IMG/VR virus record: IMGVR_UViG_2541047699_000005
Reading direction: 5' to 3' (one strand)
DNA: 28,826 nucleotides
From: a virus
Lineage: Duplodnaviria > Heunggongvirae > Uroviricota > Caudoviricetes
The notes under the pieces were generated by a model. It was not told where the DNA came from and made no database searches. It saw only the letters and a list, made by a program, of their open reading frames with translations. The position numbers and the translations under genes were made by a program. This document shows, one piece after another, positions 3,001 to 26,134 of this stretch. Each line of letters opens with the position of its first letter. The stretch's first letter is position 1.

Positions 3001-3698
3001 CTCACCTGCTGGCTGCCGAACTGTTCCGAGTCCACCTGTACGCCGACCAGTGCCGTGTTCGGGTAGCACTGTTTCACATCGATGATTTCGGTGTATGACG
3101 ACCAGAGCGTTTTGTTCTGCAGCTGGTCTGTGGTGCTGTCCGGCGTCATCCTGCGCATCCGGATATTAAACGGGCGCGGCGGCAGGTTATCCACCACCAC
3201 CGAGGCCAGATACTGCGAGGTGGTTTTGCCTTTAATGGTGATGTCTTTTTCCGTCACCCAGCCACCATTACGCTGTACCTGAACCAGCAGGCGGACTTCC
3301 GACGGATTCCGGTCACCCTTTGAGGTGGTTTCCACCAGTGCCTGCACACCGAAGGTAAAGCGCAGACGGTCGATGTTTGCCGACGTGATGGTGCGGGTGA
3401 TCGGCGTGTCATATTTCACTTCTGTACCGAGCACCGTCTCGGAGCCGGAGGATTCAAAACCTTCCGGCGGTGTCTGCTCCTGCTCACCTGCCCGGAACAC
3501 CACCGTGACGCCGGAGATGTTGGTATTCCCCTCACTGTCCAGCACCGGCGTACTGTTCAGCAGCACGCTTTTTAATCCATCCACCGGACCTTCAATCGGC
3601 CCTTCGCTGATGGCATCAATCACACTCAGCAGTTGCGTGGACTTCAGGTTGTCCTTCGCTTCGCGCGGGGTATGCCCCTTACTGCTTCCTTTGCCCAT
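1..3698 (-). CDS. J: Tail tip host-specificity protein J (lambda gpJ-like); stop codon straddles the window start
   Basis: Minus-strand ATG at 3698-3696 gives [12 protein letters not shown]..., which matches the lambda J N-terminus as I recall it. The same frame at the window start reads ...[19 protein letters not shown] followed by TG at positions 2-1. The ORF track lists no stop-delimited sub-ORF in this frame, consistent with one open frame of about 1232 codons. Confidence 0.9.
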
Positions 3699-12273: not shown

Positions 12274-12306
12274 CAGAAACTCCTGCCCGCAACACTGTGC
12301 GGGCAT

Positions 12307-12328
12307 AAAAAAACCGCGTCGGCGCGGT
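12307..12328 (-). terminator. Intrinsic terminator downstream of the major capsid gene
   Basis: Minus-strand RNA accgcg-CCGA-cgcggu followed by seven U, about 20 nt after the capsid stop (12350). Confidence 0.55.
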
Positions 12329-12349
12329 CTGTAACTGAACAACGAGTGG

Positions 12350-13567
12350 TTATTTGCCAGTGAGCGCCTTGATGGCTGCCACATCTTCCAGCACACAGTC
12401 AAAACGATGGAAAGCCAGAAATGCCACCTGATCAAACTCAGCATAACGCTCAACCAGACGTTTCAGTTCCATATAAGTAACGCGGCGAATGATAAAGCGG
12501 TTGAAATCCCCCAGGAAAATGAATTTTTTTCCGGTACCAATCCCGTCAATAGCCTGATCAATAACATAAGGGATCCCCAGCACAGTAGCCGGCGTACCGC
12601 CTGCAATATCCGGCAGCCATAACGGGCGTTTCTGCCCATCCTCCATCTCTTCAATAGTCTGCAATGTGGCATCATTGAATGCCCAGCGGTATTTCGGCCC
12701 ACCACGATATGCCGGATCAATGGCATGTTTCAGGGCATTCATTTCTTTCCAGGTGAAAGCGGCAGAGGCTGCAGTCTGGATGGTTCCCGTCACCGACGCT
12801 GCCAGCCCTTTTGGCTGTAACGGTGATCCCGTTCCGGTCCCCTGAACCAGATATTTTGCCTCTCCACGACCAATACGCTGGGCAATACGGTTTGCCAGAT
12901 AAGATTCAATATCCACCCCACTGTCCTGGAGCAGCTCATTGGACACACGAATTATTTTTGATGACAGCTTTTTAGCCCCCAGAATAGCGGTCCCGAACGT
13001 CACATCCTGTTCCGTTGCGGCTGTATTTTCCGCCAGCAGTTCGCCCTCTTCAGTCGTGCCATCAGACGTTGACCAGGTGATATCCTGCCCGGTTGATGTG
13101 GTCAGAAGTTGCGCCACACTGGCAATCCCGCCATAAGCCTTCATGGTGTCAATGATTTTGTTACGCATCTGCGTGGGCACCGTATATCCGCCCTGAGAAT
13201 CCGTTGTTACACTCTGAGCCCGCAGTTCACGCATCAGATTACGCTCTTCAGCATTCAGTTCTGCAAATCCGGCACGCAGAAAACGGTTAAATGCCGCAGC
13301 GCGCTTCTCTTCCACCGCCTTTTTCCCGTTCTCCGCCTCATTATTCTGGCGCTCTTCCGGCCCGGACTCATCCACATATGCCTGATCCTGACGGCGCAAC
13401 TCTTCTTCACGGGCGATTTGCTCATCCAGCGCATCCAGCTCAGCTTTCGCCCTGTTCCACTCTGCCCGTTGCTCATCAGTCCATGCGTTATCACCAATTT
13501 TTTCATGCAGTGCACGCATATCCTTTGCAATGGTGTTTCGTTTTTGCTTCATCTCATGAAGTTTCAT
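12350..13567 (-). CDS. Major capsid protein, HK97 type, with N-terminal delta (scaffolding) domain
   Basis: 405-aa ORF. The first ~110 residues are a charged coiled coil (delta-domain-like) followed by a capsid-fold region. No separate scaffold gene is present, and the gene follows a prohead protease. Confidence 0.9.
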   Translation of the reverse strand: MKLHEMKQKRNTIAKDMRALHEKIGDNAWTDEQRAEWNRAKAELDALDEQIAREEELRRQDQAYVDESGPEERQNNEAENGKKAVEEKRAAAFNRFLRAGFAELNAEERNLMRELRAQSVTTDSQGGYTVPTQMRNKIIDTMKAYGGIASVAQLLTTSTGQDITWSTSDGTTEEGELLAENTAATEQDVTFGTAILGAKKLSSKIIRVSNELLQDSGVDIESYLANRIAQRIGRGEAKYLVQGTGTGSPLQPKGLAASVTGTIQTAASAAFTWKEMNALKHAIDPAYRGGPKYRWAFNDATLQTIEEMEDGQKRPLWLPDIAGGTPATVLGIPYVIDQAIDGIGTGKKFIFLGDFNRFIIRRVTYMELKRLVERYAEFDQVAFLAFHRFDCVLEDVAAIKALTGK

Positions 13568-22059: not shown

Positions 22060-22275
22060 TTACTCTCCCCGTGCAGCCTTACGACGGTCCTCTCTGATTT
22101 TGAAATACAGGTTAGTCAGATATGTCAGGAAGCCCAGAACCAGACTCCCCAGTACACCAATCGCAGCCCACTGTGACGGACTGACCTGATCAAGCCACTG
22201 TAAAAACCAGTAGCCAGCACTGCCTGCGGAGGTGCCGTAGGCAATGCCCGTTGAAATTTTATCCATGGATTTCAT
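22060..22275 (-). CDS. S: Class II holin (phage 21 S-type pinholin)
   Basis: In-frame Met gives [71 protein letters not shown] (71 aa), with two transmembrane domains and the dual-start Met-Lys-Ser-Met motif; GGAGGTG SD upstream. Confidence 0.85.
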
Positions 22276-22412
22276 AGCCTCACCTCCGCAGCGAACGGAT
22301 GGCGTAGTTATAAGGGGAGCGAAAAAGAAAGAATGCGCGATTGCGCAATATGGTAACGTCAGGGTATTATCCACTGGCTGAATAGATCACTTCACGTTTT
22401 TTGTTCCTTGCC

Positions 22413-22440
22413 GCCCGTATCCATATGCGGGCTTTTTTTT
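22413..22440 (+). terminator. Plus-strand intrinsic terminator (hairpin plus T8)
   Basis: gcccgtat-ccat-atgcgggc stem-loop (one G-U pair) followed by eight T; the orientation is opposite to all neighbouring genes. Confidence 0.5.
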
Positions 22441-22446
22441 GCATGT

Positions 22447-22476
22447 AAAAAGGCCCCAACACATGTGCGTGGGGCC
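22447..22476 (-). terminator. Minus-strand terminator-like hairpin back-to-back with the plus-strand one
   Basis: Minus RNA ggcccca-(11-nt loop)-uggggcc followed by UUUUU, in the leader between the tRNA operon and the holin gene. Confidence 0.4.
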
Positions 22477-22676
22477 TGAGAGTATACATGGTTTCAGTCA
22501 ACTGCATGGTGCCGGGTGCCTCCCGGTGAATTCAGTACCAGCACCTGAATCCGCGATTATCCCATATACCTACTCGCTGATTGCCCCTCCGCACAGGGGG
22601 ATTCACCATGCCAGTTTCTTTTAACAAACTCCCCGCAAAACAGACAACTGTCAACCGTCTGAATTGTGAGACATTT

Positions 22677-22701
22677 AAAAAAAAGGCCCGCAAAAGCGAG
22701 C
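22677..22701 (-). terminator. Intrinsic terminator ending the tRNA operon
   Basis: Minus RNA ggcucgc-UUUU-gcgggcc followed by seven or eight U, starting 15 nt after the CCA end of tRNA-Arg(UCU). Confidence 0.55.
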
Positions 22702-22715
22702 CGGGAAAAATAAGT

Positions 22716-22792
22716 CTGGCGCGTTGTACTGGATTCGAACCAGTGACCGATTGCTTAGAAGGCAATTGCTCTGTCCGGTTGAGCTAACAACG
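22716..22792 (-). tRNA. tRNA-Arg (anticodon UCU), CCA encoded
   Basis: Hand-folded cloverleaf: acceptor GCGTTGT/ACAACGC, D-stem GCTC/GAGC, anticodon stem ATTGC/GCAAT with loop CTTCTAA, T-loop TTCGAAT, discriminator G, CCA. Confidence 0.85.
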
Positions 22793-22805
22793 CAGGGTAC
22801 AGATA

Positions 22806-22882
22806 ATGGACCGCCATCGAGGACTCGAACCCCGCGCAACCAGCTTCGAAGGCTGGTGCTCTATCCTGATGAGCTAATGGCG
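22806..22882 (-). tRNA. tRNA-Arg (anticodon UCG), CCA encoded
   Basis: Hand-folded cloverleaf: acceptor CCGCCAT/ATGGCGG, D-stem GCTC/GAGC, anticodon stem CCAGC/GCTGG with loop CTTCGAA, T-loop TTCGAGT, CCA. Confidence 0.8.
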
Positions 22883-22889
22883 GTATGTG

Positions 22890-22965
22890 ATGGTGGCCCT
22901 TGCTGGATTTGAACCAGCGACCTGGCGATTATGAGTCGCTCGCTCTCACCTCTGAGCTAAAGGGC
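22890..22965 (-). tRNA. tRNA-Ile2 (anticodon CAU, lysidine-type, reads AUA)
   Basis: Cloverleaf with anticodon loop CTCATAA; overall sequence GGCCCTTTAGCTCAGAGGTGAGAGCGAGCGACTCATAATCGCC...CCA is very close to E. coli tRNA-Ile2 (ileX) as recalled, so it is read as Ile rather than Met. Confidence 0.8.
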
Positions 22966-22974
22966 CGGGCGCAG

Positions 22975-23003
22975 GATAATAACGTTACGAAATCAATGTT
23001 GCA
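22975..23003 (-). promoter_or_regulatory. Candidate sigma-70 promoter of the tRNA operon
   Basis: On the minus strand: -35 TTGCAA, 17-bp spacer, -10 TATTAT, GC-rich discriminator (CCTGCGCCC); the predicted start is 2-3 nt before the mature tRNA-Ile 5' end. Confidence 0.45.
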
Positions 23004-23084
23004 AGCATTCAAAAATCACCTGGTTAAAAATCACCCTTAGCTCCTCCACCAGCGCATTCACCATGTCTATCCGAGATAAGTGGC

Positions 23085-23123
23085 ACAAAAAAACCCGCTT
23101 GTGGGCGGGTTTTGTTTGCTTTT
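23085..23123. terminator. Bidirectional intrinsic terminator downstream of the Q-like gene (candidate tR')
   Basis: Hairpin acccgc-ttgtgg-gcgggt flanked by A7 on one side and a T-rich tract on the other, about 70-90 bp downstream of the Q stop. Confidence 0.5.
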
Positions 23124-23164: not shown

Positions 23165-23193
23165 AATATATGCCTTTCAATCTACTTTTGCAA
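23165..23193 (-). promoter_or_regulatory. Candidate late promoter (pR'-like) overlapping the end of the Q-like gene
   Basis: On the minus strand: -35 TTGCAA, 17-bp spacer, -10 TATATT. The predicted transcript would run about 70-75 nt to the terminator at 23085-23110, giving a short 6S-like RNA. Confidence 0.4.
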
Positions 23194-23872
23194 CACTTTG
23201 CTTTGAAAATGCCGCCTTTTGTTTTGAACGTGTTCTCATTACAAACAATAAAGCCTCACTATCCAGTCGTTGAAAAATGTGTTTCATTGCAACCCAGTGA
23301 CGAGTAAATGTTTTGGACCAGTTTTTAGTTGTCACTCCCGCCAGTAATGCCAGCTCCTGGTATTCATAACCTTCCCCACCAAAAAGTTCTGCTTTTACTG
23401 CCTGCGCCGCCAGCCAGATTAATTTTTTCAGGCGTTCCTGCGTTTTCCCTGCAATTTTTCTGGTACCGGATTGAGTATTAAATTCATTCCACGCCCACTG
23501 TGTTATCGCGATCTGATATTCCCAACAAATACTCCCGCCGTAACACCACAACAACCAGGCTTTATGATGCTCTTCAAGAGACAGCAAAGCCCGCCGCCAT
23601 GATGATGTCGAAAACTCAACCGGGCTGACCAGGGCAATTGATGAGCCATTCGCCAGTGATTGTTTTCCCGGGATTGGTGGATTATCCCGCGTTATCATTT
23701 TTCCAGTCACTTCATCGCGGTACCGGATTTTTTTTCGCCTGTAACGCCCTGTATCGAACATGGCATTCTCCTGCCAGGCTTCAAGCTGACCTTTTGTTGC
23801 CCCACTCAAATCAGCGGTGGCGATAATGAGCTGCTCACGCACAAACTGTAAATACTGGTTATTCATGCGCAC
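23177..23872 (-). CDS. Putative late-gene antiterminator Q-like protein
   Basis: 231-aa ORF immediately upstream of the candidate late promoter/terminator and lysis genes, in the position of quuQ in Qin-like prophages. Assignment is by position; I do not recognise the sequence as lambda Q. Confidence 0.55.
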   Translation of the reverse strand: MRMNNQYLQFVREQLIIATADLSGATKGQLEAWQENAMFDTGRYRRKKIRYRDEVTGKMITRDNPPIPGKQSLANGSSIALVSPVEFSTSSWRRALLSLEEHHKAWLLWCYGGSICWEYQIAITQWAWNEFNTQSGTRKIAGKTQERLKKLIWLAAQAVKAELFGGEGYEYQELALLAGVTTKNWSKTFTRHWVAMKHIFQRLDSEALLFVMRTRSKQKAAFSKQSVAKVD

Positions 23873-25725: not shown

Positions 25726-25881
25726 TTACTCCTCAGGTTCGTAGACTGTGAAGACAGCGACCTCCGTCTGGCCGGTTCGGATTCGTACCTCGCAGAGGTC
25801 TTTCCTCGTTACCAGTGCCGTCACTATGACGGTTAAACAGATGACGATCAGGGCGATTAACATCGCCTTTTGCTGCTTCAT
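25726..25881 (-). CDS. hok: Hok/Gef-family type I toxin (51 aa)
   Basis: MKQQKAMLIALIVICLTVIVTALVTRKDLCEVRIRTGQTEVAVFTVYEPEE, with an AAGGAG SD. It is nearly identical to the HokD/RelF sequence as I recall it. The ORF-track frame extends 19 codons upstream in frame to an ATG at 25938. Confidence 0.85.
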   Translation of the reverse strand: MKQQKAMLIALIVICLTVIVTALVTRKDLCEVRIRTGQTEVAVFTVYEPEE

Positions 25882-26134
25882 AGCCTGCTTCTCCTTGCCT
25901 TTCGGCACGTAAGAGGCTAACCTAGATTTGCCGTTCATAGATTGAGCCTCAGATTAATGTTAAGCGTCTTGCAGGACGCGTAATGTTAACTGGGGCTTTT
26001 CTCTATCTGCCTTTGGTGTTCATGCCTGAGGCAGATAGCCTCAAGCACCCGCAGCAATTCTACTTAAGTTAGATAAGCTTTTCTATGGTATTCTCTCAGC
26101 GTCCCGTAAATACAGTCTCGGCTCATCATTTTTA

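Follow-up and report, generated by a model that had tools for sequence, protein, structure and literature searches.

A predicted EcOnc08/21/42-type small RNA gene convergent with STnc100 in the late region of a lambdoid prophage

Convergent pairs of small RNAs (sRNAs) have been described 3' of PR' in the Sakai prophages Sp3, Sp4, Sp5, Sp9, Sp10, Sp11, Sp15, and Sp17 (Tree et al. 2014). One place in such pairs can be taken by AsxR (RF02703) or AgvB (RF02702), for which the known mechanism is the sponging of FnrS and GcvB, or by RNAs of a second group comprising EcOnc08, EcOnc21, and EcOnc42. We analyze here a stretch of 28,826 nucleotides from a virus of the Caudoviricetes (IMG/VR record IMGVR_UViG_2541047699_000005), referred to in its full length as the window, and consider it likely that positions 22341-22440 of its plus strand form a lambdoid prophage sRNA gene of the EcOnc08/21/42 group, convergent with STnc100, whose product is bound by Hfq and acts in trans on host mRNAs. 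The features of the locus are collected in Table 1.

The second group has been detected experimentally. In Hfq cross-linking and analysis of cDNA (CRAC), EcOnc08 forms a peak at 1179938..1180010 on the minus strand in all five of five datasets (Tree et al. 2014). EcOnc42 "bookends" stx1AB on its 3' side (Sy et al. 2020), and its targets were listed as unknown in a 2021 review. In the enteropathogenic Escherichia coli (EPEC) strain E2348/69, the homologue of EcOnc08/21/42 is the sRNA E2348C_1409.E2348C_1408.IGR (1444797..1444978, minus strand), identified by RNA interaction by ligation and sequencing (RIL-seq) (Pearl Mizrahi et al. 2021).

Family membership and promoter scaffold of the plus-strand RNA

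An earlier note, made from the letters of the window, had proposed a plus-strand small RNA of roughly 60 nt with its own promoter and terminator, and a gene of this kind, some 60-65 nt in length, is strongly supported by homology to the Hfq-bound EcOnc08/21/42 RNAs of enterohaemorrhagic E. coli (EHEC) and to the EPEC RIL-seq sRNA. A relative of 22335-22457 is present at 72-76% identity in about 1000 of 5426 complete E. coli genomes (blastn, query positions 59-181, about 123 nt), with the EHEC and uropathogenic E. coli (UPEC) copies in this range of identity, the exact window variant occurs in 97 of these 5426, and the unit of promoter, body, and terminator is also found in many IMG/VR prophage contigs. 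When 11 relatives, but not the window copy, are used to build a covariance model, it finds 22376-22439 on the plus strand at full length (model positions 1-70; 59.9 bits, E 2.6e-13); on AsxR, the same model matches the terminator only (10 bits). As the window copy fits both the EcOnc08-type model and the alignment described below, the plus-strand RNA is assigned by its sequence to the EcOnc08/21/42 group and not to the AsxR/AgvB group.

The positions of the homologues agree with the published detections. The homologue predicted in Sakai Sp4 (about 1180005 to 1179937, minus strand) coincides with the EcOnc08 peak, EcOnc21 is the region just upstream of it, and EcOnc42 is the homologue in Sp15. 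This mapping assumes an offset of about zero between versions of the Sakai record for Sp4, under which EcOnc05 falls inside STnc100 on the correct strand; for Sp5 the record offset is +139, calibrated on AsxR. In EPEC, the 3' end of the RIL-seq sRNA is exactly the last T of the homologous terminator.

What the window copy has in common with EcOnc08/21/42 and the EPEC sRNA comprises the slot convergent with STnc100, the -35 hexamer, the 18-bp spacer, the TATTAT -10 hexamer, CUUCACGUUUU, UUCCUUGCC, and the place of the terminator. It differs from them in its 5' stem region (AUAGAUCAC and not AAUAUUAC), in lacking about 5 nt of the U-rich spacer, in the inner stem and loop of its terminator (GUAU-CCAU-AUGC), and in abutting a phage-21-type holin gene and not the nanS-p esterase gene. 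The plus-strand element is accordingly a new sequence variant of a family that has been detected, that is unnamed and uncharacterised, and that is absent from Rfam.

The relation to AsxR, AgvB, and EcOnc03 is of another kind. Their slot, their convergence with STnc100, a homologous upstream region with the -35 (AAAAAGGCCGCGCAGTTGCGCA), the 18-bp spacer, and the use of an intrinsic terminator are all found in the window, but these RNAs are 51-60 nt long against about 65 nt for the window RNA, and their transcribed sequences are unrelated to it apart from a GCCCG...CGGGC-type terminator. An alignment of the window with Sakai Sp4, Sp5, Sp9, Sp10, and Sp15 shows where the two kinds part: a common upstream scaffold, AAAAAG..GCGCnnTTGCGCA, and the 18-bp spacer run through all copies, and the split comes after the -35. 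AsxR, AgvB, and EcOnc03 continue with the -10 TAAAAT and a body containing ..GUAUCUCAUGC..UUGCCCGAACCCAnUCGGGC, whereas the group that includes the window continues with TATTAT and the body GCUGAA..CUUCACGUUUU..UUCCUUGCCGCCCG-loop-CGGGC-U7. The 3' region of about 42 nt from GUAUCUCAUGC to UUGCCCGAACCCAnUCGGGC that marks AsxR and AgvB is not matched in the window copy by the Rfam models: AgvB, for which the gathering score is 56, reaches 11.9 bits (E 7.5), and AsxR is not listed even at E values up to 10, whereas in Sakai Sp5, the positive control, AsxR scores 88 bits.

Wider searches gave no other affiliation. A permissive scan of 22280-22480 against Rfam 15, with E values up to 10, returned no plus-strand family, and the same holds for the homologous copy of type A (see below); the sub-threshold plus-strand matches were those expected by chance, namely anti-hemB (17.3 bits), OmrA-B (14.5 bits), and the AgvB match just given. 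When the conserved core was sought in species-representative genomes, only two matches were obtained (a metagenome-assembled genome of the Pirellulaceae and Planococcus), both taken as chance, and at the level of exact patterns these genomes held no relatives outside E. coli and its phages. Two further candidates were rejected. PasA and PasC of EPEC are Hfq-dependent prophage sRNAs that often lie beside the holin/lysozyme operon, but the authors who described them report PasA as the homologue of EcOnc51/EcOnc52, which is a different locus, and give the EcOnc08-type RNA an entry of its own in their table. EcOnc15 lies between Q and stx1A and is StxS. Elsewhere in the window, our covariance model gives a weak full-length match at 12305-12362 on the minus strand (16 bits, E 0.029 by a rough calibration), which is probably due to chance.

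Within the convergent pair, the plus-strand RNA is the half opposite STnc100 at the lambdoid moron site described by Tree et al. (2014). It lies downstream of Q and the moron cargo, upstream of the next late gene, and tail-to-tail with STnc100, and in Sakai Sp5 the equivalent tail-to-tail position is occupied by AsxR (Rfam, 88 bits). The relatives at 72-76% identity are placed between stx1B/stx2B or a tRNA cluster and nanS-p, always convergent with a copy of STnc100.

The minus-strand hairpin with a U-tract that the earlier note took for a second terminator in the holin leader is present, but it is the 3' end of a known sRNA: the Rfam match to STnc100 ends at 22441 and so abuts the last position of the plus-strand terminator. 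The two RNAs lie tail-to-tail, 6 nt apart. STnc100 is related by structure to the EPEC sRNAs PasD1 and PasD2 (Zhu, Shabalina and Storz, bioRxiv 2026). Together with EcOnc27, EcOnc05, and EcOnc13, these RNAs correspond to the minus-strand partner of about 200 nt and not to the plus-strand candidate, which is encoded on the opposite strand. Esr41, suspected here because it is reported near PasD, was rejected, its match being a partial one of 11.6 bits on the STnc100 terminator only. Many STnc100 copies stand without any convergent partner; the counts of slot occupancy combine two samples that were both chosen by pattern, and they give no unbiased estimate. In the UTI89 record (L003), two tandem-oriented STnc100 copies (2619-2828 and 3106-3296) lie in one prophage late region, and only the holin-proximal one has a convergent EcOnc08-type partner.

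The promoter elements, the 18-bp spacer, and both hairpins with their T- or U-tracts lie exactly at the coordinates that had been proposed for them. The plus-strand hairpin occupies 22413-22432, its eight pairs include a single G.U, and T8 comes after it at 22433-22440; neither this terminator nor that of STnc100 has a T-run on the opposite strand, so that each is unidirectional. For the start of the RNA, the primary 5' ends of AsxR, AgvB, and EcOnc03 have been mapped by RNA ligase-mediated rapid amplification of cDNA ends (Tree et al. 2014). AsxR begins 6 nt after its -10, downstream of a TTGCGC that is homologous to the one in the window. The candidate promoter is thus supported through its homology to the AsxR -35 scaffold at equal spacing, and the 5' end of the window RNA is predicted at about G22376, giving a length of 63-65 nt. 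The only other plus-strand promoter candidate upstream is a weak one, TTGAAA-18-TAGCCT, at 22251.

The near-palindrome that overlaps the -35 was likewise found as described. Types A and B have the arrangement GCGC-N4-GCGC, as do the sequences upstream of AsxR, AgvB, and EcOnc03, but types D and F keep TTGCGC without the upstream GCGC half, which weakens a reading of the palindrome as a conserved operator. On the strand of the late transcript, the palindrome forms a 5-bp GC hairpin followed by UUCUUUCUUU, which the terminator scan flags as a weak terminator-like site (22334-22347, minus strand).

Transcript, seed, and predicted action in trans

When IMG/VR was scanned by pattern, 32 distinct promoter-to-terminator sequences were obtained and sorted into types A to G; the window copy is of type B, and the EHEC and EPEC homologues are of type A. 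The first scan fixed UUCCUUGCCGCC and the 3' stem, so that the conservation of both is partly by construction in that subset, whereas a second scan, anchored on STnc100, left both free and recovered the divergent types D to G. Across the types, the -35 (TTGCGC, or TTGCAA in type C), the spacing, TATTAT, UUCA, and a C/U-rich CUU(G/A)CC before the terminator stem are invariant or nearly so; the 5' portion varies and the 3' part is more conserved. The terminator stems change in a compensatory manner, being GCCCGCGU/GCGCGGGC in type A, GCCCGUAU/AUGCGGGC in the window, and AACCGCUCUU/AGGAGCGGUU in types D and F, each followed by U5-U9. For this comparison each variant was folded separately and its stems tabulated; counting of pairs in a MAFFT alignment was dropped, the stems of types D and F being shifted there by one column. 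In the type D variant (L053 and L150 of the IMG/VR set), the putative seed is duplicated in tandem (UUCCUUGC-UUCCUUGCC), and the terminator stem is wholly different and compensated.

The window RNA is predicted to fold into a weak hairpin at the 5' end and the terminator, with CCUUGCC left largely open. Its folding energy is -18.5 kcal/mol with a z score of -4.34, against a z score of -0.21 for the complementary strand, and this strand asymmetry is consistent with selection on the plus-strand RNA.

The open CCUUGCC provides a possible link to a function. In RIL-seq, the EPEC homologue formed chimeras with the 5' untranslated regions (UTRs) of cfa (767) and dppA (197) and also with emrA, tir, espC, and others, and the motif common to its targets was GGCAAGG/GGCAGGG (Pearl Mizrahi et al. 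2021). GGCAAGG is the complement of the conserved CCUUGCC at 22406-22412 of the window. By extension from its homologues, the plus-strand RNA is therefore most likely an Hfq-dependent sRNA that the prophage expresses in the lysogen and that acts in trans. Transcription would start near G22376 from a sigma-70 promoter, TTGCGC-18-TATTAT, and would end at the terminator to give an RNA of about 63-65 nt. This RNA would be made in the lysogen and may be bound by Hfq through its U-rich body and 3' U-tail, and the single-stranded CCUUGCC could then pair with GGCAAGG-type sites in host mRNA 5' UTRs such as those of cfa and dppA.

The sequence features, the family membership, the conservation, and the covariation of the stems are direct observations on the window and its relatives. 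Hfq binding, expression, and the list of partners are drawn from the published homologues, and from these we infer the start site, expression, and targets of the window copy.

Several points weigh against an sRNA gene with this action. The promoter matches the consensus at 8 of 12 positions, which is the chance level and would be met about once per 285 nt per strand, and in a stricter standard promoter scan TTGCGC-18-TATTAT falls below the threshold. Terminator-like sites in the region number 7 against 5.8 expected and are thus not enriched in the terminator scan. As matches to promoter and terminator consensus are not significant by themselves, the case rests on the comparative evidence. The evidence for expression comes from homologues and not from the window variant or its prophage, the targets are taken from a homologue of 74% identity in another strain, and the RIL-seq motif is a short 7-mer. 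Moreover, the RNAs of type A homologues are longer than 70 nt (about 271 nt by northern blot in EHEC; 182 nt, estimated, in EPEC), and a second Hfq peak, EcOnc21, covers the promoter region in type A. Longer type A RNAs and the EcOnc21 peak together imply that some transcription there starts upstream, in the nanS-p leader. The window does not carry this leader sequence, as the homology with type A reaches no further than about 15-20 nt upstream of the -35; the type A upstream sequence from which the 182-nt and roughly 271-nt forms would arise is replaced in the window by the start of the holin gene.

The window itself shows no enrichment of the target motif GGCARGG (9 sites against 9.7 expected). 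One site, at 25893-25899 on the minus strand, lies in GAAAGGCAAGGAGAAGCAGGCUAUGAAG, which resembles a ribosome-binding site with a start codon; it is complementary to the proposed CCUUGCC seed. Given the counts, it may be due to chance.

Other explanations for the convergent module

The earlier note had further suggested that an RNA antisense to the holin leader could gate the lysis genes. The geometry behind this idea is confirmed: Q, the tRNAs, STnc100, the holin, the endolysin, and Rz are all encoded on the minus strand, and the antiterminated, Q-dependent late transcript carries a perfect 65-nt complement of the plus-strand RNA 100-164 nt upstream of the holin AUG (22276), with the module directly abutting the holin gene in this variant. 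Pairing at 22376-22440 could then set the level or timing of the holin and lysis through RNase III or transcriptional interference. The overlap, however, leaves the holin Shine-Dalgarno sequence and start codon untouched. Adjacency to the holin is also not a conserved property but one of the window variant, as most relatives have the module upstream of nanS-p or other genes, at least 2 kb from the holin; type B is identical over 230 nt in seven counted copies, each abutting the start of a holin gene (all are IMG/VR contigs except the window and PhiR49_2). In duplex energies, which are a crude measure that ignores accessibility, the start regions of the holin, the ydfR-like gene, the endolysin, Rz, and Rz1 are of middling or weaker strength when set against the distribution over the whole window, with the holin start at the median, and complementarity to the lysis gene starts is thus not above background. 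Finally, the occupants of the slot that have been tested or profiled act in trans on host RNAs: AsxR and AgvB on host sRNAs (Tree et al. 2014), and the closest homologue of the window RNA has host mRNA partners in the EPEC RIL-seq. The suggested gating is therefore without support in these data, and regulation of lysis in cis appears unlikely.

Both modes could be combined in this prophage type, where the sRNA module has become joined directly to the phage-21-type holin gene. The RNA would act in trans with Hfq in the lysogen and, after induction, would become a cis-antisense partner of the late transcript. A 65-bp duplex, or a head-on collision between the sRNA promoter and late transcription, would tune the processing of the holin leader and the timing of lysis, and late read-through would in turn switch the sRNA off. 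We give such a dual role little credence.

It could also be supposed that the module serves for insulation. Opposed terminators and convergent transcription would shield the lysis genes in the lysogen from non-antiterminated transcription out of the moron cargo (tRNAs here, stx elsewhere) and would block antisense transcription into the Q-proximal region, the RNAs being by-products. This would suit the constant position of the pair between cargo with its own promoters and the first late gene, the one-way action of each terminator, and the presence of a further minus-strand terminator after the tRNAs (22702..22685). It leaves unexplained, however, why the promoter and the non-terminator segments CUUCACGUUUU and UUCCUUGCC are conserved and why the homologues are bound by Hfq and have specific RIL-seq partners, and it fits poorly with the many STnc100 copies that have no convergent partner. 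We regard insulation as the main role as improbable.

In a role as an anti-sRNA sponge, the RNA would, like AsxR and AgvB, titrate an sRNA of the core genome through a 5' part that resembles an mRNA target, and would not regulate mRNAs directly. Such a role would accord with the slot and promoter scaffold held in common with these RNAs and EcOnc03. The variable 5' and more conserved 3' parts of types A to G are also the pattern that Tree et al. (2014) describe for anti-sRNAs, and the partners of the EPEC homologue include dppA, which serves as the read-out target of the AgvB-GcvB circuit. By the model scores given above, however, the RNA is outside the AsxR/AgvB sequence family, the partners recorded for the homologue in the RIL-seq table lie in 5' UTRs and coding regions of mRNAs, with no sRNA among them, and no sRNA partner was identified in this analysis, which makes a sponge quite improbable.

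It is very improbable indeed that there is no RNA gene and that the region instead encodes an annotated 46-aa protein (22507..22367, minus strand) or carries these features by chance, since, although RefSeq and phage records place a "hypothetical protein" there and the promoter match is at chance level, the 46-codon open reading frame spans both terminators and overlaps two RNA genes, conservation tracks RNA structure and promoter and not codons, and the protein is probably an annotation artefact, having no Pfam match and a reading frame broken by the 2-5-nt gaps that separate types A and B.

The surrounding late region and the place of the family among prophage sRNAs

Table 1. Features of the convergent sRNA locus and its surroundings in the window
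Feature	Position	Strand	Basis
Palindrome TGCGC-GATT-GCGCA (TGCGCGATTGCGCA), overlapping the -35	22334..22347		Read from the sequence
-35 hexamer TTGCGC	22341..22346	+	In all collected variants except type C (TTGCAA); homologous to the AsxR -35 in Sakai Sp5
-10 hexamer TATTAT, 18 bp after the -35	22365..22370	+	Invariant in the variant alignment; TAAAAT at equal spacing in AsxR
Predicted sRNA of about 63-65 nt, EcOnc08/21/42-type variant (type B)	22376..22440	+	Covariance model built without the window copy; fold
Probable seed CCUUGCC, directly 5' of the terminator stem	22406..22412	+	Conserved in types A, B, C, D, and G; complements the RIL-seq partner motif
Intrinsic terminator (8-bp stem, 4-nt loop, T8)	22413..22440	+	Terminator scan; stems covary between variants
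STnc100/PasD-like sRNA	22441..22640	-	Full-length match to Rfam RF02076 (model 1-206) at 140.2 bits; gathering score 47
STnc100 terminator, hairpin GGCCCCA...TGGGGCC (22452-22476) and U5 (22447-22451)	22447..22476	-	3' hairpin in the Rfam alignment
Terminator-like hairpin with T8, directly after the tRNA cluster	22685..22702	-	Terminator scan
Three tRNA genes, anticodons CAT, TCG, and TCT	22717..22966	-	ARAGORN and Rfam
Antiterminator Q	23177..23872	-	Pfam PF06323, 304 bits; determines the direction in which late transcription runs
Phage-21-type class II holin S	22060..22276	-	Pfam PF04971, 122 bits; list of open reading frames; the lysis gene that comes first on the late transcript

On its minus strand, the window reads as a lambdoid prophage late region, in the order Q, three tRNAs, STnc100, the slot of the plus-strand candidate, holin, endolysin, and Rz. 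The sRNA locus lies within the 424-bp gap between the last tRNA and the start of the holin gene. A DUF1327/YdfR-like gene, a lysozyme gene, and Rz/Rz1 follow the holin, and genes for RusA and a DUF968 protein lie upstream of Q. The tRNA cluster is of the moron type ileZ-argN-argO, homologous clusters being annotated ileZ/argN/argO in Sakai. Its first tRNA (22891-22966) is called Met with anticodon CAT by ARAGORN; as the Sakai prophage homologue is annotated ileZ (tRNA-Ile, cat), it is probably the lysidine-modified Ile tRNA of such a cluster.

Between Q and the tRNAs, a symmetric hairpin AAAACCCGC..GCGGGTTTT at 23087-23113, present on both strands, could be tR', and two minus-strand promoter-like sites, TTGCAA-17-TATATT (23165-23193) and TTGCAA-17-TATTAT (22976-23004), lie near it. 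This stretch is likely the PR'/tR' region. The holin begins with MKSM (22267-22276), with Met codons at positions 1 and 4, an arrangement that presumably resembles the dual start of the phage 21 S holin/antiholin. A hok/sok-type module is marked by a sok antitoxin RNA (RF01794, 111.7 bits) at 25876-26050 on the minus strand, upstream of the DUF968 gene.

In conclusion, the sRNA locus is real, though of a kind that is ordinary in lambda-like E. coli prophages, and nothing here overturns current views. The EcOnc08/21/42-type RNAs are a conserved, experimentally detected prophage sRNA family that still has no name and no Rfam entry, and in public genomes the locus is either unannotated or covered by the probably spurious "hypothetical protein". 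The family reaches beyond Stx phages into other E. coli prophages, including those of the uropathogen UTI89 and many human isolates. In one slot, RNA bodies that are unrelated to each other, either AsxR/AgvB-type or EcOnc08-type, are driven by a single promoter scaffold, and CCUUGCC can be proposed as a conserved seed of the EcOnc08-type family. With its sRNA module directly in the leader of the holin gene, the window provides a natural case that would be the best place for testing any cis role of convergent pairs in the control of lysis.

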